From an uncultured bacterium (GTDB taxonomy: Bacteria; Auribacterota; JACPWU01), in assembly GCA_964640155.1 (NCBI GenBank), contig CAZXEQ010000002.1:240001-272000 (forward strand): a stretch of 32,000 nucleotides of DNA, read 5' to 3'. The number at the start of each line of letters is the position of its first letter. Within the stretch, counting starts at the first letter, position 1. Below are positions 1-24,000 of the stretch, one piece after another. The notes below the pieces were generated by a model, which ran no database searches, had not been told where the DNA came from, and saw only the letters and a list, made by a program, of their open reading frames with translations. The translations under genes and the position numbers were made by a program.

Positions 1-3000
1 ACGCTTAAGAACTGGATGCCCTCGAGAGAAAACAGTGTCAACTCTTTCACTCAAAACATTCAAAGCTTTTGTTGGATTTCGATCATTCGTCACCAAATAA
101 CCATAAGCCAAGTGGGTTGTTGCATAATTGGTTACTTCTTCGGACAATTCAACAGCCCTTTGACTAACCTCATGATGAAGCTGGGGACGATCAGCTAAAT
201 TCAAATATTTCTCAATAGCGTTATAAGGCTTCCCAAGCCCTTCAAGATAGGTGATATCTAAAGGTTCTGCCTGTACAGCCGCTCGCACCATCACTAATCT
301 CAAGAGATCACTTAAAACAGCCTTCCCCGCTTGTGCATCTTCACGAGAACGAATATCTTCATTATAAAGAGAGGTGATTTGAACGGCCTCAGAATGGGTG
401 ATTGAACGAGGCTTTTCATCTTTCCTGACAGGTTGATATCCAATAATTTCCGAAACCTCATGAGCAAGCGCGCCCGCTGCAATATTCGGCCCTCTGCGCT
501 TCAACAAAGCTTCAAGTTCATTTGCCTTTGAAAATCCATGTCCTCTATTAAGAAGAGCTGTAGGAATATAAATGGTATAAATTAAATTCCCTTTGTCATC
601 GACTTGGGACTCTGAAATCGCAGGAATAGGTTGAAGCCCATAACCTTCTCTTTCAAATCCTGTCACGTCTGGGCCTAAATCTACAGGCTGAACACGAATG
701 AAAGCTTCTTGATATTGAACGCCATTGATCTCTTTAGCTTTTGCAAGCTGGATCTTAGATGCCTTTCTTTGACCTTTTTTCCCGGATTTCACGCCCAACA
801 AAGCATCTGCAACCCGTTCACTGTGTCCTTGATAGCCTGGAATATCTCCTGCTCCTTCTAAGAGATCACTAACGCCTGTCTCATTAAAATCTTTCCCCGT
901 CATAGGGACTTTGTTTCTACCTTGCTTCTGTACAATAGCTCGAATTCGGGTAAGTACTCTCGCTTCTTCATCACGCTCCAAATGAAACTCATTGGGTGCT
1001 CGTGCGGTGATGGGAGTTCCCGCCGCTGCAACGCTTAAGACTGCATCAGGGGGTTCGACGAATGCTAGAGCTGGTACTTCTGCTGGTACAGGAGCCCTAC
1101 CAGAATCAGTCAAAACCGCTCGACGAGTAGCAATCATAGTAATCCGCTTCTCCAACCCCTCAAACCATCCCTTCACAGGTTCTGAAAATTTTAACTCCTT
1201 TCGATTGGCACGATCAACATTCGGATCGAAGTCAAAAAGAAAATCTAAACTTTTCTGACCACCTGGAGCATCAGCTGTATAACTTGCCGCATCAGACATA
1301 TAAAAAACTTTTAAAATTTCAAAAAACTCTTGCATCGATTTTCCTGATTCACCTGCCATTTTTTGAATCACAACACTTGCTTCTTCTGCAGTTATGAGCT
1401 CTTTCATATATTCCCCCACCGGATCTCCACTGAGAAGTGCTTGAGCAAGTTTGATTTCATTTTCAGAACAATCAAGCTGTCTTAGAAGAAGTCCTACAAT
1501 ACGAACCGTGTGTATATGCTGATCTCTTTTGTCTCCTTGCATAATCGCTAAATTTTTTCCGATATCATGAATCGCAAGAATCATTCTAAAAAAAACTTTA
1601 TCCACACCAGGAATATCTCTATTGCCAAAATAATGTTCAAACTGACGTAAAACCATCTCTGTGTGTTGTTCAATGGTGTAACCCTCTACAAGGTCCGCGC
1701 CTGCTTCTAATTGTTCTTTAAGGAATGGGTTTGCATCCTTTAAGGCTTTTATGAAGGCTTGCGGGCTAAATGAAGTGGCCGATTGAGCTGCCAGCTGACG
1801 AATATTTGAAACATGGGAGCTATTAATACTCTTAAAAGTATTAGAAGAAAGTTCTGATAGTTTCTTTTGAGCTTCTTCAAATGCCTTCCAAAGCCCCGTT
1901 TCTTCGCGTAACACTCTATTTACTTTTTCTTTAGCCTTGCTGATAGCAGCTTGAACATCTGACCTATTTCGAATATTTTCTGGAACTTGTTTTAACATAC
2001 TCTCCAGTACACGTTGACTGATAAGGTCTGTTCGAATGATTGCTTCATCACGAAAACCACTTCGACGTCTCTCTCTAGTGATCCTATCGAATATTCCATT
2101 TGACGCCCTATCTATCTCATCAATTTTCCCAATCACCAATTTTTCGAAAAGATTATTAATCCCCTCGGTATGATTCAAAGCCAAGACTTCATCTTGTAAA
2201 AAAAGGCCCTGAATCATTTCTACTACGGAATTAACATCTTCCAAATAACCCGAAGAGGAGACACTTCTTGTTCTTAGTTGTTCGCGTTGATCCGAAGGTA
2301 GTTTTTTCAAAATCTTATTGAAAGCTCCTTTAAACTTATAGATCTTTCCCTTAAGCGAATAAACCGTTGGAACCTCTAAAATTTTACAAAGCCTTTCCAA
2401 AACAGCTTCCTCTTGACCGTTGCCAGATGTATATTCCCGCAAGAAGACTTGTTCGACAGCACGAAAGAGATCCGATAAGGGAATTTCATTCAATTCATTA
2501 AAAACTTTTTCTTCTTCTCTTAAAAATTTCTGTCGTTCTCGTTCTTTTAACTCTTCATAATCGCGTGTTGTAAATTCTTTACAAGGCACCTTATCTGTTG
2601 AGTCTTTGTGCATCACCGTAATAGAATTCCCTACTCGGGCCACCACATCCCAAAAAATAGGTCGCCCTCTTAACGCTCCCATTGTAGAAGTAACGATAAT
2701 TCTTCCTTCATTACTGTCGCTTGCTTTATACGTTTCAGCTGTTTCTATACCGTCAAGGCCAACGCCCCAATCCGAGCCCCCTAGCTTGGTATCTCCTAGT
2801 AAACCAGCAAACTTTCTTGGAACACTTCTATAAACAGGAACATCATCAGGGAAAAGAGTCATGGTTAAAAGCATTCTCAAATCAGCACGTACGCCCGTCT
2901 TAAAATTTATTCCCATTTCATTGAGAGTTTTCCGGACAAGATCTAGTACTTGAGCACTATTTTGATAGTTTCCGTTTGCTTTTCGACTCACAGCCTCTCG

Positions 3001-6000
3001 AACTTCCCTAATTTTGCTCTCATTTTGTAATAAGACGACCGCTGATCTTTCTTCATCAGAAAGAGAATCCAAAAATTCTTTGATCAATTGGCCCACGTTT
3101 TTATTTGCATCCCAATGGGGATTCTTTAAATGAGCGTTCATCCCATTGAGGATGTTTAACACGCCTTGTGTTGATAAAATTCTTCCTAATTGAGGATATG
3201 TTAAGCTCATAACCTCCTCGTCTACAGTGCTCATCATTGAAATATTTTCTACTGTAGGAGAAATTTTTCTGACTTCCAGAGTATGCACTCTCTCAAAAAA
3301 CTCAGCGAGGATGTGAGCAGGGTCTGCTGATGGATTTCGAAGTGTCAACTGAACATTACCAGAAGCATCAAAGGCGACATCTATGCCTTGCACTTCGAAA
3401 AATGCTATGAGTGCTTCTCTGATATTGTTCGAGCTCGTCGAGAACGAAGCTAAAACTTGTTTTAATTTTTGCTTTGGATTTGAATCAAGACCTAAGTAAA
3501 ATTCACTAAGTTCATGAATAGCCAATTGAACGAGAGCATTGTTATCAGCATTTTCATAAAAAGTTTGTGTGGTATAAACCTTTCCACCGGGTCCTCGGAA
3601 AGCAACCACTTGTTTTGTAACAGGCTTTCCTCCTCTTTTTTGCTCGATCACTGTAAAAAAGGGAGCGCCTTTGTCCAAACTTACAGTGACTTGTGTGTCG
3701 CCACTTTTAAATGTAATCGCACTTATAGATTCAAACGTCACAATCTCTTCCAAACCTTTACCCTCTGAGCCCGCCAATCCATAACGCCCTAAAAATTCAT
3801 CTGCTGTTTTTTCAATCTCATCAAGTTTAGCTTCAGAACGAGTATGAGACACTCGTCCGACCACTTTACTTGCATTGTCAGTATTTTCTAACGCCTTCAA
3901 AACTTCTCCCACTCTCGTCTCAGAGATCGGATGTGAACCTTCGACAGGTTTTGTGGCGGTCCCTCCCATGGTATCTCCTCCACGTGTTGTTCCTGCGCTA
4001 TTAATAATGTTCAAAGCATCTTGAAGAACTTTAGTACGATCTCCTAGAGACACCTCCGCTAACGCCTGAGCAATAGGACCTAACAGTACTCCGTGCAAAG
4101 CAGCATCAAATGGAATTCGGCCTAAACCAATATCACGCGCTATTTCCAACACCGTTGACTTTTTTGAAAAGTCTCTCGCCAGTTGCTGAGCAACTACTTT
4201 ATTTCGAGTTTGTTGAGACAACCCTTGCTTTAGGGCATTCATGACTCGTACTTGTGGTGATTCAAACCATCCGCTCATAGCGTCAAAGACCGAAAGATTC
4301 TTCATAAATGCTTCAATCACAGGGATACGACTTAAAAATGGCATCGCTGAAGAATATTCAGAAAATTGTGGATGATTATCTCCTCCTCCATTCTTAGGAA
4401 TCTGATCACTATATTCATAACCCGGGATAAGAAGAGCTTTTGGAAAATCTAAGAGCAGGGTATTTGTTTTAACGCCAAAACGAGTAACTGTTAGACTTTT
4501 GGGTTGTATATCTGCTAGCCAAACAATGGGATTTCCTTTTTCATCTCGAGTACTTTTAAAGTGAAAATAAATTTCTCCATTTTGAGATTCGAAAATATGA
4601 TTTTGAATCTCTCCATAAAGTGCCCCCTTGCTTGTAAATTTTTGCACCAGGCGACTAAAGTTAGGAGCATATCCCTGTTCAAATTGAATTGAAGAAAGAT
4701 CATCCTTATTTGTCTGACGAGCAATCGTACGTTTCTGGCCTGCAGACTGAGGCGCCATGTCCAATAAAGGTCCAACTTGTTGAAACAATGTTTGTCCCAG
4801 CACCAAAGAAACTTCAAAATCTTTAGGAGCTAACGGACCTCGCATTCCTTTCTCAAGCAATTCATAAAAAAGATTGCCATACTTTGGAAAGTCTCTCTCA
4901 TTACTTTTTTCTATATTTTGATGAATCCAGGCTAACTCTGCCTGGATTTCAATAGGCAAAGATGTTGACTTTTCACTCTTAAAACCCTTTCCAATCCATC
5001 CTCCTGATTCATGAGAAGCAGTCCGCCAAACATCCTGAGAGTTACTTAAATAACAAGAACGAACATAAACTTCACCTTTATGATGAAGATAAAGAATACA
5101 GACGGGCCTCCCTTCGGAATCACGATATGGATCCGAAAAATAATAAACTGCATCTGGGGCACTCACACCAGGATAAGCAATCTGATAACGTGGCTCTAAT
5201 CCAAGCCCATCAAGTTCGGCAAGTGTCATATTTGCATTATAAATATGAACCGGAGCTCCCGAAGCCACAACCCCTTTTAGACTTGTTGCAGCAGTTCCTC
5301 CTCTATAATCTCTTCGTACTTGTTGTAGCAAAACCTTTCGAACATTTAAGCGGCTTTGAGCCTTTTGAATAGCATTTCGTACTGTATCAATGTCCTTTAA
5401 ACTTTTAAAAACCACTTCCAAAGTTGAAACATCTGCTAACTGCGCTCTTTCAACAAAAGCTTCCAACTGTCTTACCATTTTAGGAAGAATACTTTTTTCA
5501 ATAAATTCTAGAGGAGATTCTTTGGTGTAAGTTGCGACTTTAAAATTCATTTTCGCAAAACCAACCAGCCCTTTGGAAAAATCAGGCCATCTTTCTGCTT
5601 GTATAGTCCCTAACACCATTCTTTCTAATTCCTGAGCCACATTCTTCCAAAGAGAACCAAGAACTCGAATATATTTTTGTGCATTGTCAGATTTATCACC
5701 ATAAAATTCAATCATTGCTAAACATACATTTGCCAATACTACCCTTTCTTCTAAACTGATACCTTCCCTGGAAACCCAACTATTAATAGAAGCATCTGCA
5801 CCTGTAGCAAGCTTTTGCATCCATTCACGGCCTTTTACAGATTCTTCTGTCTCAATCCATGAAACAAGAGAATAAACTCTCATAAATTCTGAAGGATTTA
5901 ATGCACTTAAAGCTTTTTGAATCTCTACCTCAGCCAAAGGAATCAATTTATTTTTGATAACAACATGCTGTTCATCAAAAACTGATCTTCCTGCCAAATT

Positions 6001-9000
6001 ATTGTAAAAAACCCCAAAAACCTCATCCCATTCTGTACAAATTGTTTTGAATCCAATATTAAGATGTTCTCGGCTTTCAATCAGAGAATCCACAATCGCA
6101 GAAGCTCGTGCTCGAAATGCTTTATCGATACGAGAAGATACCTTTTGAAATTCACTGCTAACCCTCAGTTTCCCTAGATCTGGACTCGATACAAGTTCTG
6201 CAAGTTTTTCAAGAGAAGAAGCTTGTTGAATCTGAACTTCAAAAGCTTGAACTTTTTGCCCTATATCTTCAGAGACAATCATCTCTTCAGAGGGTTGAAG
6301 TCCCCTACCCCCTCTTATCATCCTATCTACCTCAGCTCTTTGTCGGCCCTGAAATTCTTGATAACCTGGAAGAGACGCTAAGCGAGCCCTCGCATCTCGA
6401 ATATCAGAAAGAGAAGGATTCTGTTTCCCGATAAAATTCTTGGCTGCATTAACATCAATTCCTATTAAAACCTTACTTCGTAGATCTGCTTCTAAACCGC
6501 TAAGACCTTGTTCAATCTCCCTAAACTCTTCATCTGTCATCACAGATTTTGCCCGAGCCTCTCGGCGTTTCATATCTTGATAATCAGCTCGTGCGTGAAG
6601 ACGATCCAAAGCCCGTTGAAGCACTTCTTTAGAGATATCTTTGACACCCAACAAAGCCAAAAATCCTGAACAGGGCAGAACGTTCTGTACCCCTAAATTC
6701 GGTTCTTTGCCTCCTCCTTTAGCGATCCATATGGATAATACATACTCTATGTCCCTTAAAACTTCATCACTTAATACAATGGGTAGAGGCGATGTGGTCA
6801 TAACATAGGTTATCTCGTCTTGATTTCCTCGATTAATGATTATTTCTCCTTCTTCATTGAGATGCAACATTCCTGCATTTTCTAAAATCATCCCTTGGCT
6901 TTTTGTGAGTGGATAATTTTTTCTTCCGTCTCTGGCAACAATGCTGCCCGACTCGTTGTATTCTACGTAAACTCTAGATCGTGGAGTGACAATGCCAATT
7001 CTAACACCATGTGAGAGAGGCAAGGCTTTTACTCCAGACGGCTCTAATGTCTTTGCTGAAAAAACATTCACAACAGGAAAACCTCCACCATAAATCTCTT
7101 GTAAAATGGAAGCCAATTCTTGCTTCTGCGATGCTTCCATCCCGCTCATACGATCCACCCAAAAATAAAGAGCAGAAATTTGTTCAAGAGACAAAGCCCC
7201 TTGGGAAAATAAACTCTTCAAATAGGTTTCTACCGTATTGTAAGGATAGACTCCCTGAGCATACATCGCCATAAAACCACTTAAATAAACAATTCCGTCA
7301 GGAGTTAAGGAAAGAGGAGCTAAAACTGCACCTAAACTATTCTGTATATTTTCCTGAAGCACTTGAGTAGCAGCTTGCCTGAAACTTGCTTCAAAGATCT
7401 GTACTTGTTTTAATTGATCTGGACCTAAAACTTGCCCTATAAGCTCATGATGTGAAAGCCGATCTTCTTGGATAAATCTTACAAGTTTATCAACCGACCA
7501 GTTTTTCATTTTTCTTAACTGCATTCTTAAGAAAGGAGATTCGCTGTAGGAAGTTCTATTATTTTCTACAATTGCATCCGCCCAAGCCAAAGCATGAGCT
7601 TCAGCTTCATCAAAATTTTTACTCGTTCCAGGATTAAATTGTGTAAGTCGAACCGCTTCCCTCGACTCATGATCTACTGCTTCGTCTTGAATAGCCTGAA
7701 CCTCAGATTCATAATCTATTGCCTCTCTCTGCAAGACTGGATCGATCTGGCGATTCACCGCCATATAAAACCTACCCGATCCTTTAGGAAATTCAAAATG
7801 ATGCGCGGTTAAACCTTTCATCTCGGAGGCAGGCGCATACCAAATTCTCATTTTTGTTTTATTCGCATCATTAAGCTCAATTTCTTCTTTTTCGTCTTTG
7901 GCTTGTGCCTCATATCGATTTACAAACGCCTGAAGCTCTGCATCATCGAATTCGACCCCTTTACCTTCATTTCTCAAGCCGACGTCTTTAAGGGCTAGAG
8001 CAGCTTGAGATGGCAAAGCCCCAGCTACGCTTGGCTGAAGCGCCTCACGCCATACCGCTGAAGCCCACTCACCTGAAATCACGCGTGCCATTTGAATAAG
8101 TTGTTGATCTGTAGCTTGGCCTGTCAAATTTTCATTGATCAGCTGGTCCAACCTTTCATCAGCAGAGAGACTTCCTAATCGCGCTAATCGTTCCTCAAAA
8201 TATCTCTCCCACATTTGAAAATCGACAGTAGAATGCCCGCCTAATACCCAGACCATTCTGTTGCCAAAATCAGAACCAAAAGTTTTTAATTCGCCCAAAA
8301 TATTTTTCTGAATATTCGAAGGCAGATTAAGGAAAAATTCTGTCTCAAAAATTCTAGCTAAAGAATCTCCCATATTACCTGTAAGTCCATGTTCTAAACG
8401 CAAATTCGCATCAAAAAGAACAAGCAAGGCTAAATGAGGATATTTTAATAAGGTTTGATCCAAATAAATCTCCCCATTCTCAATACTGAAAACCCTGGGA
8501 ACCTGGGTAAAATGAATTTTTTCGATACGATCAATATTGATTCTTGATCCTGCATGTCTCTTGAATAAGCGAAGTAAACTGGGCCATGCGTCGATAAAAG
8601 CTTGCGGTTGGGGGCGAGAAGACTCATCGACAAACGCCATAGCAGAAGATGGTTCCGAGATTAAAATGTCACCTTGGGGGCCAGCAACTCTCAAAACAAG
8701 TTCTGGAAGTGTAGTACCACCGAAAGCAGCTGAACGATAAGCATTCGTAGCTGTCGGAACAAGTCCTGCTCTCTCACGCAAAGTTCTAATTTCTTCGTGG
8801 TTTCGAATCGCCAAATCAATCACTTGCGCCCATTGCTCTTCAGAAACATTTGCATTTCTCAAAATCATCAAAACAGAACCTGACAATCTTTCCCCTGCAG
8901 CCAAAGTTGCTCTTGCCACTTCAAGAATATTGATAGAAATTTTAGATAAGGAAGTGGCTAGCATACGATAAGCTTCTATTAATCGAAATCTTTCCTGAAT

Positions 9001-12000
9001 ACCACTTAATTGAATTTGAAAATTGGAAATACTCGCTCTTCCATAATAGAGATCCACAATGGCTGCTGCTAAATCCTGAGCTATCAAAGAATGGTTTCTG
9101 GAAAATGCTTTTCCCAATTTTCTCTTCCAATGATTTTCAATTCTAGAAGCCAATAATTTGGCATTATCAGGGAATCCTGTTACAACTAATTCACCTGTAA
9201 GGTAAGTCACCATGCTGTAACAAGCCCTTAAAACATCTAGATTAGGTTGAATTTCATTGGGACCAAGGGGAACTACTGTAATGTTACCAGCTATATCTGT
9301 TATGGGATAACCTTCAGAATCCCAATTTACCTTAAACCCTGGTCGAACATAAACACCGGCCAAAAATCCTTGTCGATTAAAAGTGTAAATATTTTCACCT
9401 TCTGAGGATATTTGAGAAGCCATTCCCCAGTCTATTACTGCAATAGACGGTTCAGAGCTTGATTGAAGATCCACTTCTAAATTTCCATAATGAAGATCTC
9501 CATGGCGTATCCCTTTTTGTGCAAGAGCACCTATAAAATTTCCTATTTGTCCCACAAGAGAGATTTGTTCATGTGGAGATAAATCATAAATTTCTGGAGA
9601 GTCAAATTTAATACTCGCATTCTGATTGCGAATATCGATCATTTTCTTAGTAGAACCACTTTCCGTAAGTTCTCGACGAAATTCTTGAATTTGATATTCA
9701 AGTCGAGCACCTCTTTGTGAAACCATTTTTTCTGATTTTAAAACTTTCACAGCACTTTCAGGTGCAGATTTAAAGAAATCCTCTAAATAAGCATGATAAG
9801 AATCTACAAAGGAATTTGGATTTTGTAGTTCTACTTTAAGCACAAAATTGATAGGCGTTCCGTTAACCATCTTTTGAACAACTATCGCAATACCTTTTTG
9901 CCCAGAACCTAACACTTTCGTAATCACATCAAAATCATAAGCCTCTCCTCTAAGTTTACGTCTGAGCTGATCACGTTGAAGATCCATAATTCCCCCAACT
10001 AACTCGTTCTGAAGAGCTTCATTGGAAGCATAGCCTGTTCCTTGACCACGAATCGTATCTTTCCTTCTCACTTCCCCCGCAATGTCAAGTTCTAATAAGC
10101 CAGGTAAAGTGATAAGGGTTTCTTCTACTACCATGTTTGTTACAACTTCTTCCAAATTTTTCAATCTTCCTATCATTTTAAAAGCAGGCATTTGAAGTAT
10201 TTGCTGTAAGGCAAATCTCTGTTCTTTAGACAAATTGATTAATGCGTTTCCCAAAGCTCCTTCATTAGGGAATGCCCCAGCATAATAACCCACTAAAACA
10301 TAAGCGAGTTTTAAAATAGATTCATAATTTGGGAAAAAATGTCCTGGTAAAAGACTTAAAAAAACAAAGAGATTATTTTCTGGATGGGCAAAAACTTGGT
10401 TGTCAGGATCAAGCCCCATCAAGAAATCTATAATTGTTCTTACTCCTCTCTCACCTAAATACGGAGTTAAATCCTTGATTAAGCGATCATGAAGACTAAT
10501 CAATGCAGCATGTGCTACTTTAACTGACAAATTTCTAGCTCTTTGAACATCGCCTTCACTCAATTGGCCACTGGCCAACAAAGCTTCATTTTCTGGGCTC
10601 AACTCATATCGTTGCATTAATGTAGCAAAATAATCTCTGTCACCTTCCTCTGCTGCATTTCTAAAACTGATTAAAGACAACTCGCTCATGATAGGTTCTG
10701 CATTCCCAGAAACATCTGAAATCCAGACTTGTGCTTGGGTTCTAGAAGCAGGATCTTCATTTAAAAGAGCTTCCCATTGCACAGCCTGCAAATGTTCAAG
10801 CCCTAAAAAGGTTTCTCCAATTTCATGCCCAAATAACGCCAACTGAGCTGCTTGATTCTGGACTGCACTTGCCAAAAAATCTAAACCCCCTCGCGTCACA
10901 TACACCGTATGTTGCTCAATGCCATTTCTAACTCCATCAGGTTTCGTATATGCCATCACAGGACGTTTGCTTTCATCAGTTCTAAACCCAACGTCTGTAG
11001 TCTTCACTACTTGAATATTGAGTTGTACTTGCCGACCATTCCTAAGGGTTACAGACCCGCCTTTTAAAATAGCAGCGACCCATTGATAGAAAAAAGCGAT
11101 TCTAGGATCAAGATCTTGTCGTGTACGAACTTCTTCGTAGAACCTTTCTACAGCAGCCACCAAATTCGCACGCTCTTTCTCATCCATGCTGTCCTCCCCA
11201 AAAAATCCAACCGCTGTATTTACAGATCTCTCTAATTTTTCAGCACCTACATGTGTCCCCGCTGCTTTTCGAGTAGTGGGAGCTGGAGTTTCTAATTTTG
11301 AAATTGCAGCCCGAATATCATCAACTGAAGCTGAGCCATCAATAGCATTTAACACTGTTTCAAGTCCATCAATCGTTGCTGCATCATCGGGATTCACAGA
11401 AGCAAGAGCAGCAGCATAGGGGCTATCTGCTTCACGTAATTTATTCAAGATTTTAATAAGAATGCCTCTCCGATTCGAGATTGGAGACTCTTTTGAAAGC
11501 GCTCGAAGAAATAAAGCATATTTTACAAATCTCATTCCTGTCATAGCAGCCCTGCCTGCATGTGCAGGAGCAAAAGCCCCTGTAAAATCTACACCTAACG
11601 TATCCATTCCTGTTCTAATTTCTTCTTGAACTTCTGAAGGAAGTCTTAAGAAAAACTCTAGTTCTAATGCAGCTGTAATGAGTTCTGCCGTGGCTTTACC
11701 TGCAACATCATAGAGTTCGTACTGTTGATGAATTGCTTCATGAAAAAGAAGATAAGCAATAAAACTAGAATTTTTTGCCAGACGTTCATCATGTAAAATA
11801 AGATGATGAAGACTAATTCTCCCGTTTGAAGTTTGAGCCATACGATCCATAAAAAGAGAAAACCCGATGGGCCCTATTTTATCTGGATCAATCAGGGAAG
11901 AACCATATTGCTGGAGCTTTACCATTACTTCAGGCCAAATTGATTTCAAAACGGTTCCTTGAGGATTTGTATCTGCAGTCCCTTCCAAAGTTATACCATT

Positions 12001-15000
12001 CAAAGTAAAACTTCCTTTTTCTGCATCAAAAACAACTGCCTCTGACGCCATTCCAATTGCAGCAGCTTGCACAGGCTGAGCTGTTAGTCCTACTGCTCTC
12101 CTTAACTTTTGAATTTCAACAGCTCTTGCTTTTACCTCTTTCAATTTGGCTAAAACTTGGTTTTTTCCTGTCACTCGCACATTGGTTAAAAGACTTCGAA
12201 TATCCGAAGATAATACTGCTTCAACCGTAGCACCTGGTTTAGAAAGTCGGCTGATCATCGAATCTAAATTCGCAATCGACACCGCTGCCACTAAACGAGC
12301 GACAACCCGTTCTGGAGTAAGAAGGGAAATCACAGGAGCAATCGGAGGAGCACGTTCTTCTTGATTTAAACGTTCCTCCAATCTTTTCCAGCCTAGTGTG
12401 ACTTGTTCCACTAACGAATCTGAAAGGTTTTTATTAGCTGCATTTCCATCATAAAGAACAGGGAAATCAGCATCGAATTGATTGAGAGCAGCAATAGCAT
12501 CTTGTGTGGAAAGACTATCCAAACTTGCAATAACTCTATCCAATTTAATTTTTGCTTCTTGAAGATCAGGGATCGGAGCACGTGTGCTCGTCCAATAAGG
12601 GAAACTGTTCTCCGCATTTGAAACCGAAAGTGTAGGACGAAACCCCTTTTGAGATTTTCCAAATAAAGTTCTCGATAATTCTCCAGAAGTAAACTGGATT
12701 CCAGCGCGAAGAGTCTTTACAACTTCACGATTAAAGAGTATTCGGACTCCTGTATTTGGACCTTCCACTCCTACCCGGGCTTGCTCTTCAGAAAGATTTA
12801 GAATATTTAAAAATTCATTCCATCTAGAAGCTTTCAAATAAGCATTTCTAACTCTCGGAGATAAAGATGCGACAAAAGCTTTATACTTCTGAGGATCTTT
12901 GAAGCGCAAGCGTTTCGTTAAATCATAATTTACAGCACCATTTGCTATCTCAAGCTCGACAGACTGAACCCCCGGCAAAACCTTTGACATCAATAAAGAG
13001 TAAAGACCTTTTCCACTCAGACTTCCAAAATCTACATTGTGAACAAAAAGAGTATTAGTAGATCTATTAATCCCTAAAGAAATTTGAACATCTGTTGCTG
13101 TTTCAATAAAAATTGAAATAAAGATTTCATTCTCTCCAGATTGAATAGGAGGTGCTCTAATCTGAAATTTTAGAGGATCTCCATTTTCGTCATTAACTAT
13201 TTCCCCATTTTCATACTGCAAGGTAAAACTACCTTGCCTGATAAGCTGAAGAATTACAGGTTCCTCAGCGGCGGGTGGGGCGCGTTCTGCCTGAATAAGA
13301 CGTTCTTCCAATCTTTGCCAAGCTTGAGTAACTTGTTCTACTAACAAATCTGAGATATTTTTATTGGCGGCATTTCCATCGTAAAGAACAGGATAATCCA
13401 TATCAAATTGATTCAACACTTTAATCGCATCCTGCGTAGAAAGACCATCTAAGCTTGCGGTGACTCTATCTAACTCAGCTTTTGCTTTTTGAAGATCAGG
13501 CACAGGAACACGGGTAGCCACCCATTCAGGCCATTTTGAAGATGCAGAAATAGAGATCTTTGGACTAAATCCTTTTTGAATATTTCCAAAAAGAGTTCTC
13601 GATAATTCTCCTGGTGTAAATTGAACTGTTTTCAAAGCTCTTAGAACTCTATTTATAAAAATATTTCGCAAGTCAGAAATACGAGTTTGCTCTTTAACAT
13701 CTGTAGAAGCTTCTGAAAGATTACCCATTTTTTCTAAAAAATGCTCCCAAGTGTTAGAGGTAAGATAGGCATTTTTTACATCGGGAGAAAGATCCGTAAT
13801 AAAAGCTTGATGTCCCTCTATGTCCTTAAACAGAAGTCGTTTGGCCAATGCATAATTTGTATCTCCATTCATCACATCTGTTTCAAACTTATTTATACCA
13901 GGAAGAATTTGCCTCATAACATCACTGACAAGGCCTTGTTTCGCATTTTCTTTCATGTCTATAAAACCGACATATAAAGATTTATTTTCTGAATTAAATA
14001 AAAGCGTCACCTGCATACCAAGCTGCTTAGATAAAATGATAATTTCTCTTTGTCCATTCTCATTCCCAGTTATTTCTTTAACTTGAAACTCGATTTTTTC
14101 TCCATCTCTATCTATCGCTATTAACTTTCCTTCTTGTATGATTTTCAAAATCGCTGGCTGTGGTTCACTCGCAATAGCTCTCACTCGCTTCAAAGCTTCC
14201 TCGAGTACAGCAACCCTTTCTTCTTCTGCAACATTTTCGAGAAGAGGTGTAACTTGGGGCACTGCAAGTCCTCTTTCCCATTGGCTAAATTTATATTCAC
14301 TACCTTTCTTAAGAAGCGTCATTGCTTCAATTGCAGGAGCCAACACCCTTTCTCCAAGAACCATTAATTTTTGAATCACAAAAGGTTCTAGAATTTTTTG
14401 GAATTTCTCGATAGCTTGATCAATAGAAAGTTCCACTCTACTATCTTTAAATTGCACTTTGAGCAGTTCAAGTTTTGAAAGAACCCAAACAATTTCTGAT
14501 TCTTGCTTTGAATTTGCGAAATTTCTTTCCAAAGCATTTAAAGCGTCTGTCACTAAAAGAGTTCTTGTCACTCCATCAAGAATCCTGACTTGCCTCAATG
14601 CCAAAGCAGTCAATGCAACTTCAACTTGTTCTTTAGTACTAGCCATTTGAAATTGATTCATCAGAGCATCTGCTGGTTCTTTAACAATAAATTCAGACAC
14701 ATGCTCTCCCGTTGTTGCTACAAGACCAAAGGTGTAATAACCTAAATCTCCATTAGGGGCTGTAGTATGAAAAATAGTTTCCTGAAGGATAGAAATAACA
14801 CCATGAAAGGCTCGGTCAAGAACTGCTTGTTGAGCAGGATTACGATCAACAATGGCTCCTCCTAACATATAATTGGCAGTAAAAACAGCCACCGTCTCAT
14901 GAGGATTTAACATCCAATAGCGATCATCCTCTGCAGAAGTGGGCTTGATCCCTACTTTCCCATTTGTAAGTTTGAGAACATCATAAGCAAGCCTGTTACT

Positions 15001-21000: not shown

Positions 21001-24000
21001 ATAACGAACTCTTAATTCAACAACTCCTGCCAGAGAAATCACCAAATCCTGATCTGCAAAAGTACTTGGATTAAACTCTGTAGCTTTCCCCAACACTATT
21101 TTTTCTTCTATCAAAGCAACTGTTTTCGGAAAACCTGACTTAAAAACACTCATAAGACGATAAAGAGCCACGGATCGCTTGAAAGATAGGCTTGACAGAA
21201 CTTGATCCAAAGAAAGATTAGATTGAAGATTCTTCTCATAAACAAGAATGCTTAAAGCTGCTTCAACAATTTCTTCTGATGAACTATCTTTCCACTCTGG
21301 AAGATTAGAAATATTCACACAAACAGATAACTCGCTTTGCGTAAAAGATTCTTTAATTCCTAAGCGAACTGCCGTTTTAGAAAACTCTGTTTTGAGCTTT
21401 TTTTCAATCATCCTTTCTGCAGCAAATCTAAATCCCTTTTCATAAGCCTCTACTTGTTGAGAGGAAAATTCTGCTCCAGCCTGAACAGCAACTTGGACGG
21501 TTTTCTTATGAAGCTCTCTTCCTTTTTCATACTCTTCAATAATGGCGCGTAATTCTTCCAAAGACATATTCTCAAGAGCAGCCTGATGAAATGGAGTCGC
21601 TTTAAATTCCTGTTCAAATATTTTTCCGTATTTCACCCCTTGCTCAGCAGCAGCAATAATATGAGCTTCAACTTGAGTAAAAGTGCTCCCCTCAGGATGA
21701 TCTGTGGTTATCGTATTCCGATTAACCACTCCCATCCAATAAACTTCCCTTTTCTCATGAAAAATCGCTTCTTCATGAAATTCTTTCGGAAGATTTTGAT
21801 TAATGGCAATATAAAGCTTCCCATCGACTTCAAAATTATGAGCGGGCAAACCTTTCATGGCTTCGTTAGGCAAAGACAGAATTTCTGCCTGACGACCATT
21901 ACCAATATCAGCAGTCCAAAACCGACTAAATAATCTTTGATACCATGGCCTATATTTTTGAACGGAAGCTTTAAGCTCTTCCGGTGTAAAACTAGCCATT
22001 GTCTTTTCATTGCGCGGGCCAGGATGTCTAAGAGCTTGAGCTAGTACTGCAGTAGCTAAAGCAGGTCCACCTACAGAAGCAACACTTGGATTAGGATTTC
22101 TCGCAACTTCTGCTGCAAAACCGGCTAAAGCATTCGCTGAAGGAGGAGCAAATCGTGTTAAAGCAGTTTTGATTTGTTGAATAAAATCATCCGCTAAAGT
22201 GGAATCATATTGCTGAAGATCTTGAGCAAGAATAAGCGCTTGATTTAAAGAAACTTGCGTCCCTACTTCCAAACTTTTTTTAATGTCTACCACCAAAGCT
22301 TGTATTTTTTCTGCTTTTGCTCTTGCTTCAGTAGCTTGCCGAGCTGCTGCTTCTGCCGCAGTTTTTTCTTGAGTCAATCTCTCGGCTTCAGCCAACAAAA
22401 GATCTTTATCTGCTCGCGAAACAATATTCTTTGGCTGTTTACGAAGCATTTCTGCAATCACCTCTAAGGTCTTTCCTTCTTCAACCATCGTTTTGATTCT
22501 CTCTCGCATTGCAGCCAAGGGATCTTCCGTTACTTTAACCTCGGACGTTTTAACTTCAGATGTTGTTGCAACAGGTGGCACAACCTGAGCCTGAGGAATA
22601 TTTACTTGGGGTTGCGGTGCTTCAGCCACATGTGTTTTTACTTGAGCATACGGACCTAAAAGTGTTCCAATTTTTGTAGCAAGTGTTTCAATTTCTTCTA
22701 CTCTTGCTTGCGATTGTCTTTGGGCAACTTTTGCTTTGATATTGACCCAGCGCTGACCCAAAGCAGCATCAGCTAAAGATTTTTGTTCGCCAGAATACAT
22801 ATTTTGTAAACGCAATACATTCGCTTCTACAGACCGAAGGGTTCTTAACACATCTTGATTATCCCCCGACGATAAAGCATCTTCCAACGCATTAAAAACT
22901 CTGTTTACATATTGATCCAAAGACATAAATGAAAAAGTAATTTTTCCTTCGGATCCTTCAGGGGCTGGTAAAACATCCATTCTTCCATTGGCAAGAGTCA
23001 CTTGTTTAGCTAAAGCATCTACTGATTCTTCTGTTCCTAAATTTTTTACTTCAAGAATACAAACTTCTTCTTTTCCATTTGCTTTATTTTGAACTGTAAA
23101 GCGAATGACCAAGGTTCCATCGTCCAACATTTCCATAAAATATTTTGCCGAAGCTAACTGCGTCATAAAACTCATCGATTTTTGAGCCAGGGTTAAACCC
23201 TTTTTCGCAGCTTCTGAAAGGCTCGCTTCTTGATCCTTCATATATTGAGTCATTACACCCAACATAAGCTTTCGAAGTTCTTCTCCTCTAAGTTGCTTAC
23301 CCCTCGCTGTCTTTTCTCCTGCCTTGGCCTTCAATTGCTCCATGGCTGCCCGATACCCCAGACCTAATAAAAGAGTGAGCTGTCTGATTCCTTCACTTAA
23401 TTCTCCATTCATGATGGGTTCATCTGTTGTTAGCCTCACCACAGGGGCCAAACGATTTCCTTTTTCAGTCAAAATTTTATCCAGAGGAGATTCCTCTTCC
23501 ATCATAATATCGATATAAGGAGTCAAAGCCTTGAGATCTGTCATGCGAGGATTAATGACCATATAAGAAATATTTTTTTGCGATAATTTCTCGACCAAAC
23601 CTTGGGTATGAAAACCCCCTGTCACCAACACCGCTGTTTCAATCCCCATTTCATCCATACGCCCTAGGGTATTTTCAATCAAAGCCTCGTCTCTTAAGAT
23701 CGCCGCATTATAGAAGCCTTCCAAATCCTTCAAATGCGCATCCATATCAAGCAAATTTTTGGAAAAAGAATGGCCAGTGTCTTTAAGAAACGAGAGGAAA
23801 AATTCAGAAGTGAATTCATTTCGATGTTCTCGATAATACTTTAAAGTCTCTCGAGTCAATTTTAGTTCAATAAAATCTTCATAAAGAGAAAGATGTGTGA
23901 GCAAAAGATCCAGTTTTTTTGCCTTTGCATCCGAAATGAGTTCGTCTTTAATATCCGATTCTAATTGACGACACTCCACTTTCAATTGCTTTGCATCAAG

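Follow-up and report, generated by a model that had tools for sequence, protein, structure and literature searches.

A giant gene from an uncultivated bacterium encodes an interleaved mosaic of diverged paralogous modules behind a conserved head domain

Polymorphic toxins and polyvalent proteins, as reportedly laid out by Zhang/Aravind in 2012 and Iyer et al. in 2017, join a conserved N-terminal part to hypervariable C-terminal enzymatic modules. MARTX toxins (multifunctional autoprocessing RTX toxins), known from Vibrio and other bacteria, are giant secreted proteins in whose central region effector modules form a mosaic that differs between strains by recombination. In the Omnitrophota, giant genes ('Archaeovorins' and others) adjoin genes for GspE, GspF and pilus proteins, and according to two preprints these genes have been implicated in predation and a degradative role has been proposed for their products (West-Roberts et al. 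2023, 10.1101/2023.11.21.568195; Nielsen & Lui 2026, 10.64898/2026.06.07.730766). In this work we analyzed a stretch of 32,000 nucleotides (nt) from an uncultured bacterium (assembly GCA_964640155.1, contig CAZXEQ010000002.1, positions 240,001 to 272,000), hereafter the window, which carries a giant gene on its minus strand. An earlier note on this DNA had described the encoded product, here called the giant protein, as an interleaved mosaic of at least five paralogous module families. From our analyses we conclude that the mosaic is real and comprises six such families, and that the giant protein consists of a signal-peptide-like N-terminus, a head of ~500 amino acids (aa) and at least 20 globular modules strung together in a chain (Table 1). 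On balance we lean towards the view that it is an exported polyvalent effector array that would act on or in another cell, either prey or host. A large Auribacterota protein has been described in PMC12057145, but it has CASH and Rhs domains and is not of the type analyzed here.

The minus-strand frame is free of stop codons from position 25101 to position 1, that is, over 8,367 codons; counted from the ATG at 25065 the gene covers at least 25,065 nt and is still open at the left edge of the window. The predicted protein begins with MTQPLKQRSH, followed by a hydrophobic stretch, and this ATG is the likely start because it aligns with the initiator Met of P0006, the closest homologue, which comes from a metagenome-assembled genome (MAG) labelled Chlamydiota. 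The span 380-21900, to which the earlier note had referred the giant protein, lies within the gene, but the full gene is longer and runs off the left edge. The closest relative, L001, is a locus of 13,901 nt in a MAG labelled Candidatus Auribacterota and consists of one open frame throughout. With nearest relatives carrying these two labels, the host can be placed by sequence among the uncultivated bacteria of the Planctomycetes-Verrucomicrobia-Chlamydiae (PVC) group. For the modules common to the giant protein and L001 the dN/dS ratio is 0.09-0.33, which indicates purifying selection, and catalytic-looking motifs are invariant between module copies of only 25-35% identity; the giant open reading frame (ORF) is a real gene under purifying selection. 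L001 extends by at least 2,400 aa beyond the position that is homologous to the edge of the window, and the full giant protein is therefore probably longer than 10,000 aa. The plus-strand GC skew is -0.10 to -0.23 over the whole giant gene (window positions 1-25000), so that its coding strand is G-rich throughout, and it is slightly positive over the plus-strand pilus genes.

The giant protein was compared with itself by all-against-all BLASTP of 250-aa tiles, by iterated hidden Markov models (HMMs) and by phmmer --max. Six paralogous families were recovered, A and C with three copies each and B, D, E and K with two, at E values from 1e-71 to 1e-3 and with 25-59% aa identity between copies. 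The two D copies stand in tandem (50-59% identity, E 1e-71); the A copies share 38% (E 1e-56), except for the third, at ~25% (E 1e-9), and the B copies 38-44% (E 1e-38), the K copies 28-31% (E 1e-14) and the C copies 28-35% (E 1e-14 to 1e-7). Residues in paralogous pairs at E<1e-5 amount to ~34% of the chain, or ~44% if counted by module extents. Every pairing that the earlier note had listed was found again by BLASTP tiles and HMMs, the N-to-C order that it gave is correct, and the strings that it had quoted for A1 and A2, GRIS(V/L)H...FHEAIHQQY...ELEFFLRL, and for B1 and B2, HILAEF(L/F)ERVHTL, are present; significant internal similarity thus reaches beyond D1 and D2 to the A, B, C and K pairs. 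Family E is the sixth and had not been listed: the module at 0.8-0.4 kb, taken before for a B3-like copy, is paralogous to another module of the chain, but it is copy E2 of this family.

A mosaic of this kind calls to mind two well-known classes of giant protein. The first is a repeat-type adhesin or fibre, whose modules would be structural and non-enzymatic; the giant size, the signal-like N-terminus and the D1-D2 pair would suit it, as would helical, coiled-coil-like stretches such as aa 547-1000 and the helical insertion of the head. We nevertheless consider it very unlikely, given that D1-D2 is the sole tandem pair and the other copies are dispersed, that two thirds of the chain are single-copy at E<1e-5, that His/Glu/Asp motifs are invariant across diverged copies, and that Pfam scans found no Ig, cadherin, beta-helix or other adhesin repeats; the earlier note had likewise set the protein apart from repeat adhesins. 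The second class comprises the assembly lines of non-ribosomal peptide synthetases and polyketide synthases, the best-known case of interleaved paralogous domains in one giant bacterial protein. These domain families are easy to detect, and Pfam and NCBIfam scans of the whole protein returned no condensation, adenylation, carrier, ketosynthase, acyltransferase, acyl carrier protein or thioesterase domain. The resemblance is confined to the abstract pattern of interleaved paralogous families, and we regard this explanation as virtually dismissed.

The mosaic had been attributed to old duplication and shuffling, in opposition to a recent expansion of repeats, and several observations bear this out. 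Paralogous copies share 47-58% nucleotide identity, with dS of ~1.0-2.2; synonymous sites are saturated and the duplications are therefore old. Each of the three C copies differs from the other two as much as from the C modules in five proteins of other organisms, and their tree is star-like. Copy B2 shares 69-73% identity with the B module of L001 against 38-44% with B1, hence the split of B1 and B2 is older than the split of the two organisms. The modules common to both proteins are arranged as X-Z-B-(540 aa novel)-Y in L001 and as Z-C2-A1-B1 ... B2-X-Y in the window, a difference of order that supports shuffling; the order breakpoints between the two fall at module boundaries. B modules also occur in P0001, A followed by C in P0002, and C in P0005, P0003, L030 and L058. 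By these comparisons of sequence, the six families arose by ancient duplication and were reordered by recombination at module boundaries, and the modules are drawn from a pool common to other giants with the same head. Internal repetition in other head-bearing ORFs is in a few cases similar to that of the giant protein (36% in L080), and in many it is not.

At its N-terminus the giant protein has Lys and Arg before the hydrophobic core and acidic residues after it, which is the orientation of a signal peptide, and AlphaFold (AF2) predicts a helix at aa 9-30. The same signal-like pattern is found in P0001, P0002 and P0005-P0008. No other hydrophobic 19-mer of the giant protein reaches a transmembrane-like level, and we infer that the whole body may be exported via Sec.

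The head follows, and its residues Q94, D95, H97, E125 and G483-G-F-H-T487 are invariant in seven head homologues. Its AF2 model has a predicted local distance difference test score (pLDDT) of 76 overall and of 85-90 in the core, and the strands and helices that flank the invariant residues score 80-90. Several lines of evidence, no single one significant alone, suggest a hydrolase fold of the Tiki/ChaN/EreA type. The Pfam family ChaN (PF04187) matches weakly two of seven head members (best E 0.008), and the Foldseek matches with the highest probabilities in the list are EreC, BcR135, HopBA1 and RRSP, all weak (E 0.8-3.7). In hhalign the head matches P0003 over the GGxH motif at E 0.068; P0003 is a stand-alone protein of 449 aa in which a ChaN/Tiki-like domain (Pfam E 4e-6) is joined to a C module. 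This small protein also has a weak PMT_C2 match and looks like a miniature of the head-plus-HExxE architecture. As in the Tiki/TraB/ChaN/erythromycin-esterase group, the head bears, on an alpha/beta core, two His motifs (QDxH and GGFHT) together with an invariant Glu; in contrast, its helical insertion of ~300 aa is absent from classical members, and the matches are non-significant.

Relatives of the giant protein are few when the body is used as query and many when the head is. An exhaustive HMMER search of 1.84 billion representatives with aa 1788-2987 found only five proteins, four of which are giants of 3,225-6,014 aa. Three of these giants, P0001, P0002 and P0005, have the first ~550 residues in common with the giant protein and carry B, A plus C, or C modules elsewhere, respectively. 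A search with the head alone added six further proteins, so that the head is common to P0001, P0002 and P0005-P0011; P0006 is 44% identical to the giant protein. P0007 and P0010 consist of the head, transmembrane segments and one HExxH domain, and these HExxH domains are not detectable as A modules. Although the head has no Pfam model, its alignment retrieved at least 480 relatives from metagenome contigs of the JGI, of which 80 loci (L005-L084) were fetched for comparison of context and bodies. Their head-bearing ORFs fall in three size classes, ~510-590 aa, ~900-1,350 aa, and 2,000 to at least 3,900 aa, and the only thing that their bodies have in common with the giant protein is a C module, in two loci. 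Cytoplasm-type domains are found in the bodies of relatives: HTH_3, PIG-L, hexapeptide transferase, PP2C and Pkinase. No neighbouring gene is conserved across the 80 loci, the best family being present in eight. An origin of the head family in phages or mobile elements was considered and discarded, with no plasmid or phage match and one match in 2.9 million viral contigs.

Some relatives have features worth recording in their own right. One contig, Ga0082335_1000043, holds two head genes (L021 and L043). L080, of 3,865 aa, has an XRE-type HTH_3 in two stretches, one of them at aa 3431-3486, which is unusual beside a signal-like N-terminus. As read from the sequence, P0001 (6,014 aa) would contain a Hint/intein-like insertion and several P-loop kinase-like segments (GxxGxGK[ST]), and P0002 a Ser/Thr kinase and two PP2C-like regions; P0001 also shows a CX5R motif like that of low-molecular-weight phosphatases, and internal hydrophobic segments.

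Within the body, the motif HExx[HE] occurs ten times, against 0.98 expected, and the maximum in 2000 shuffles was six. The motif scan assigns HExxH to A1, A2 and a singleton at aa 3204, and HExxE to C1-C3, B1, B2, E1 and E2. By eye, a strand-like hydrophobic run lies 25-35 residues before these motifs in the giant protein and in its relatives, and a crude automated rule recovers such a run before seven of the ten in the giant protein; a hydrophobic strand ahead of the motif is the usual zincin arrangement. In A1, A2 and the A module of P0002 the signature is HE(A)xH followed, 19-24 residues past the second His, by an invariant E-x-E, and a Glu at this distance is the spacing of gluzincins such as thermolysin. 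The AF2 model spans C2-A1-B1 and has a mean pLDDT of 51, only the A1 core being usable (pLDDT 60-89); there, three strands are followed by the HEAIH helix (471-486) and the ELE helix (493-509). C2 and B1 are modelled with low confidence as strands and then the motif helix, and a second helix comes after the motif in all three modules. When the A1 model was compared with the PDB using Foldseek, the matches of highest probability were MATCAP and the putative Zn metallopeptidase 4l7a, at E 0.5-1.8 and a probability of ~0.2. Pfam peptidase matches to family A are weak (E 0.003-0.16), each in one member only; the family has no PDB profile match, no family of MEROPS, Pfam or the PDB matches it significantly in sequence or fold, and metagenomes scanned with the A alignment gave no match. 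The A modules thus have in common with gluzincins (thermolysin-like; M48/M56, SprT, MATCAP) the HExxH motif, the Glu on the next predicted helix and a small beta-sheet before, and they appear to be metallopeptidase domains of this type; the motif is lost in A3, probably a paralogue without catalytic activity.

Modules B, C and E differ from gluzincins in that they carry HExxE, and to judge from their motifs they are likely zincin-like domains with this variant site. In family C, HExxE, EAH, AxAE and R and E positions are invariant across eight sequences from different proteins, which argues for an enzyme-like site; PDB sequence and profile searches with this family gave no meaningful match. 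The C-terminal three-helix part of C resembles protein A domains at E 0.02 only, and this match was treated as compositional. An A module is always followed by one with HExxE (A1 by B1, A2 by E1, A3 by C3, and the A of P0002 by C), and the distance from HExxH to HExxE is 304 residues from A1 to B1 and 305 from A2 to E1, which hints that A and its HExxE partner may form a two-module unit. B1 and E1 have no sequence similarity (Z -1.3); the near-equal spacing could reflect either a duplicated unit whose second half has diverged beyond recognition, or coincidence.

The K modules are best explained as atypical protein kinases, judging from profile matches and retained motifs. A profile built from K1 and K2 finds 189 kinase sequences in the PDB, aligned over the catalytic core, with E 1.7e-5 at best; Bud32 matches K2 (E 2.4e-5), and both copies retain GSGxxG, VLKV, HGD(I/L)HxxN and the Asp of the DFG position, while Pfam matches to Pkinase, ABC1 and APH are all below the gathering cut-offs. 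The segment that the earlier note had called FHA-like does have the GR and SQKH motifs and a weak phmmer match to the FHA domain of APLF among PDB sequences (E 0.0018), but it has no Pfam match. Similarly, the motif behind its HD assignment is present in module X, where H7801 and HDIGK at aa 7834 are conserved in L001, but neither Pfam nor the PDB supports that assignment. Module Z carries a DxN...IDLG motif that is possibly kinase-like. PDB and Pfam searches gave no match for D, Z or X; ~4,000 further residues match nothing, and nothing rose above cut-off when the whole protein and nine single-copy segments were scanned with Pfam and NCBIfam.

In another explanation, the giant protein would be a scaffold that is anchored in the membrane by its N-terminal hydrophobic helix, faces the cytoplasm and, with its kinase, FHA and peptidase modules, serves as the producer's own signalling or regulatory hub. 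Kinase, FHA and PP2C form a classic bacterial signalling triad, and the recognisable domains in the giant protein and its relatives (kinase, FHA, PP2C, HTH, methyltransferase-like) are all of cytoplasmic types; moreover, P0001 and P0005 have internal hydrophobic segments. In contrast, the charge distribution at the N-terminus predicts an N-in, C-out topology with the body exported, and one head with extremely diverse bodies resembles conflict-driven polymorphism and not housekeeping signalling. The Cys content of the giant protein, only 0.2%, also speaks against a cytoplasmic hub, and we judge this explanation to be quite improbable in comparison with an exported effector array.

Table 1. Features of the giant gene and of its neighbours in the window; residues are numbered from the ATG at 25065.
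Feature	Residues (aa)	Position (nt)	Strand	Characteristics
Giant ORF	>8,355	1..25065	-	ATG at 25065 as likely start; 3' end beyond left window edge
Signal-peptide/signal-anchor-like segment	1-46	24928..25065	-	K/R, hydrophobic core, then PQAQD
Conserved head	48-546	23428..24924	-	predicted alpha/beta core; invariant QDxH, E125, GGFHT; ~300-aa helical insertion
Module C1	1004-1225	21391..22056	-	HExxE at aa 1103
FHA-like segment	1372-1433	20767..20952	-	GR...SQKH; APLF FHA match E 0.0018
Module K1	1474-1773	19747..20646	-	protein-kinase-like; GSGKQG, VLKV, HGDIHWEN, ID
Module Z	1787-2105	18751..19707	-	single-copy; common to L001 (65%) and P0004
Module C2	2101-2348	18022..18765	-	HExxE at aa 2220
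Module A1	2387-2723	16897..17907	-	gluzincin-like; HEAIH at aa 2579, ELE 19-21 residues past second His
Module B1	2732-2987	16105..16872	-	HExxE at aa 2883
Singleton HExxH (HEIAH)	3204-3208	15442..15456	-	hydrophobic strand before motif; zincin-like candidate
Module D1	3621-3938	13252..14205	-	paralogue of D2
Module D2	3949-4246	12328..13221	-	tandem with D1
Module A2	4252-4589	11299..12312	-	HEAIH at aa 4442
Module E1	4652-4868	10462..11112	-	HExxE at aa 4747
Module K2	5049-5349	9019..9921	-	protein-kinase-like; HGDLHYGN; Bud32 match E 2.4e-5
Module A3	5369-5610	8236..8961	-	HExxH degenerate (FDANLRLEH), ETEFF retained
Module C3	5684-5909	7339..8016	-	HExxE at aa 5799
Module B2	7035-7289	3199..3963	-	HExxE at aa 7184; 69-73% identity to B of L001
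Module X	7253-7975	1141..3309	-	common to L001; last 220 aa (nt 1141-1809) with H...HDIGK...D
Module E2	8090-8355 and on	1..798	-	HExxE at aa 8202
GspE/PilB-type ATPase		25714..27420	+	Pfam T2SSE and MshEN; NCBIfam GspE 633 bits against cut-off of 630
PilT/PilU-family ATPase		27524..28618	+	Pfam, NCBIfam
Second GspE/PilB-type ATPase		28646..30352	+	MshE-type N-terminus, cyclic di-GMP-binding type
GspF/PilC platform protein		30448..31710	+	Pfam, NCBIfam

Divergently from the giant gene, starting 648 nt upstream of it, the plus strand carries a set of four genes that resemble those of type II secretion systems (T2SS) and type IV pili (T4P). The gene for P0006 (locus L003) is likewise divergent from a GspE/PilB gene, whose product is 62% identical to that of the window. 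The two GspE/PilB paralogues of the window flank PilT and share ~47% identity, as estimated from their matches to L003; both are barely above the NCBIfam GspE equivalog cut-off, and the MshE-type N-terminus that binds cyclic di-GMP is described for the second only.

A further alternative is that the giant protein is an extracellular or surface-bound degradative megaenzyme, a multi-protease weapon or feeding device that digests prey surface proteins, cell walls or detrital protein outside the producer and does not enter a target cell. A signal-like N-terminus without any transmembrane segment and ~10 zincin-like motifs would fit such an enzyme, and T2SS/T4P-like genes adjoin the gene as they adjoin the predation-linked giant genes of the Omnitrophota. 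Against it, Pfam and NCBIfam scans found no carbohydrate-active, peptidoglycan-degrading, adhesin or binding domain; the two kinase-like modules with intact motifs and the FHA-like segment need ATP and phosphoproteins; and the PP2C, HTH and P-loop kinase modules of the relatives make little sense outside the cell. We consider this alternative unlikely, although less so than a cytoplasmic hub.

An exported polyvalent effector array that acts on or in another cell is the reading that we prefer. The earlier note had spoken of an effector or toxin arsenal, and this is plausible because a signal-like N-terminus without a further hydrophobic segment is combined with enzyme modules of cytoplasmic type, and because relatives combine the conserved head with bodies that differ extremely widely. 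In the mechanism that we propose, the giant protein would be exported through Sec, the adjacent GspE/PilT/GspF machinery may assist its delivery, and the kinase-like and zincin-like modules would act on or in a prey or host cell, where enzymes of cytoplasmic type would find ATP and substrates; some of the embedded zincin-like modules may cut the chain into separate effectors. A broader proposal is that the head marks a widespread and so far undescribed class of exported 'head-tethered effector arrays' in uncultivated bacteria, with a Tiki/ChaN-like head, hypervariable chains of enzymes, delivery assisted by T2SS/T4P-like machinery, and modules exchanged between giants; in the giant protein the enzymes would comprise new metalloenzyme families (B, C and E with HExxE, and the gluzincin-like A) and atypical kinases. 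We advance it tentatively and regard it as doubtful.

A number of points weigh against the preferred reading. Scans of Pfam, NCBIfam and the PDB matched none of the modules to a known family of toxins or effectors, and export is predicted by eye from the sequence alone. To our knowledge HExxE is not a recognised zinc-protease motif, so that B, C and E could instead be metalloenzymes of another kind, or pseudoenzymes, and sequence comparison reveals no significant relationship among families A, B, C and E. Neither the head nor A has a significant fold match (E 0.2-4), and the C2 and B1 models come from a prediction with a mean pLDDT of 51. Enrichment of HExx[HE] is absent from most other head-bearing giants. 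Synteny with T4P/T2SS genes is seen in the closest relative only: among the 80 metagenome loci with the head, an adjacent GspE/PilB gene was found in none, and a PilT-like gene within 10 kb in two. Finally, the C-terminus and any immunity or partner gene 3' of the giant ORF lie beyond the window.

By analogy of function, MARTX toxins and the polymorphic and polyvalent proteins would be the closest counterparts of the giant protein, although membership in these groups fails on every defining domain. It shares with MARTX the giant size, the likely secretion and the mosaic of putative effector modules that differs between relatives by recombination, and the MARTX effector RRSP (PDB 5w6l), of a Tiki/EreA-like fold, is the one already named among the weak structural matches of the head. 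Unlike MARTX, in Pfam searches it lacks RTX/glycine-rich repeats, the C80 cysteine protease domain and any known MARTX effector domain, it has a Sec-type N-terminal signal in place of a C-terminal signal for type I secretion, and its modules are duplicated within one protein. With polymorphic toxins it shares an N-terminus that is conserved in at least 480 loci and followed by unrelated bodies, rare C modules excepted, embedded zincin-like domains (and, in the relative P0001, a Hint-like insertion as read from its sequence), and enzymes of cytoplasmic type on a protein predicted to be exported. In contrast to them, it has no Rhs/YD, filamentous-haemagglutinin, PAAR, LXG or other known trafficking domain, it carries many enzyme-like modules in series where a polymorphic toxin has one toxin tip, and its head family is not borne on phages or plasmids.

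The resemblance to the Omnitrophota giants lies in a very long ORF from an uncultivated PVC-related phylum, a near-total lack of annotation, an N-terminal export signal and GspE, GspF and pilus genes as neighbours. The differences are that the nearest relatives here are labelled Auribacterota and Chlamydiota, that the protein would have 8-10 k aa where those have more than 30 k, and that here there are no transmembrane helices along the chain and no SecA/DEAD, carbohydrate-active or dockerin domains. The head domain and modules A-E are not among the features described for Omnitrophota giants in the available passages of the two preprints. The giant protein can be regarded as a giant linked to a secretion locus in a PVC-group bacterium and built from undescribed parts.

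Few parts of microbial genomes are understood as poorly as the giant genes of candidate phyla, and this window offers a tractable example. The six families, with their conserved and mutable motifs (HExxH plus Glu, HExxE plus His, kinase loops), amount to expressible domains of 200-350 aa. The head provides a family marker with which such genes can be catalogued and with which it can be asked how their bodies exchange, and the shuffling of modules that is visible between giants is informative about the growth of such genes. New families of metalloenzymes would be defined if the HExxE modules were shown to be enzymes, and if the giant protein is delivered to other cells, the logic of polymorphic toxins and MARTX would extend to PVC-group bacteria. 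Should the broader proposal be true, head-tethered arrays would be a bacterial counterpart of MARTX and polyvalent proteins built from entirely new parts.

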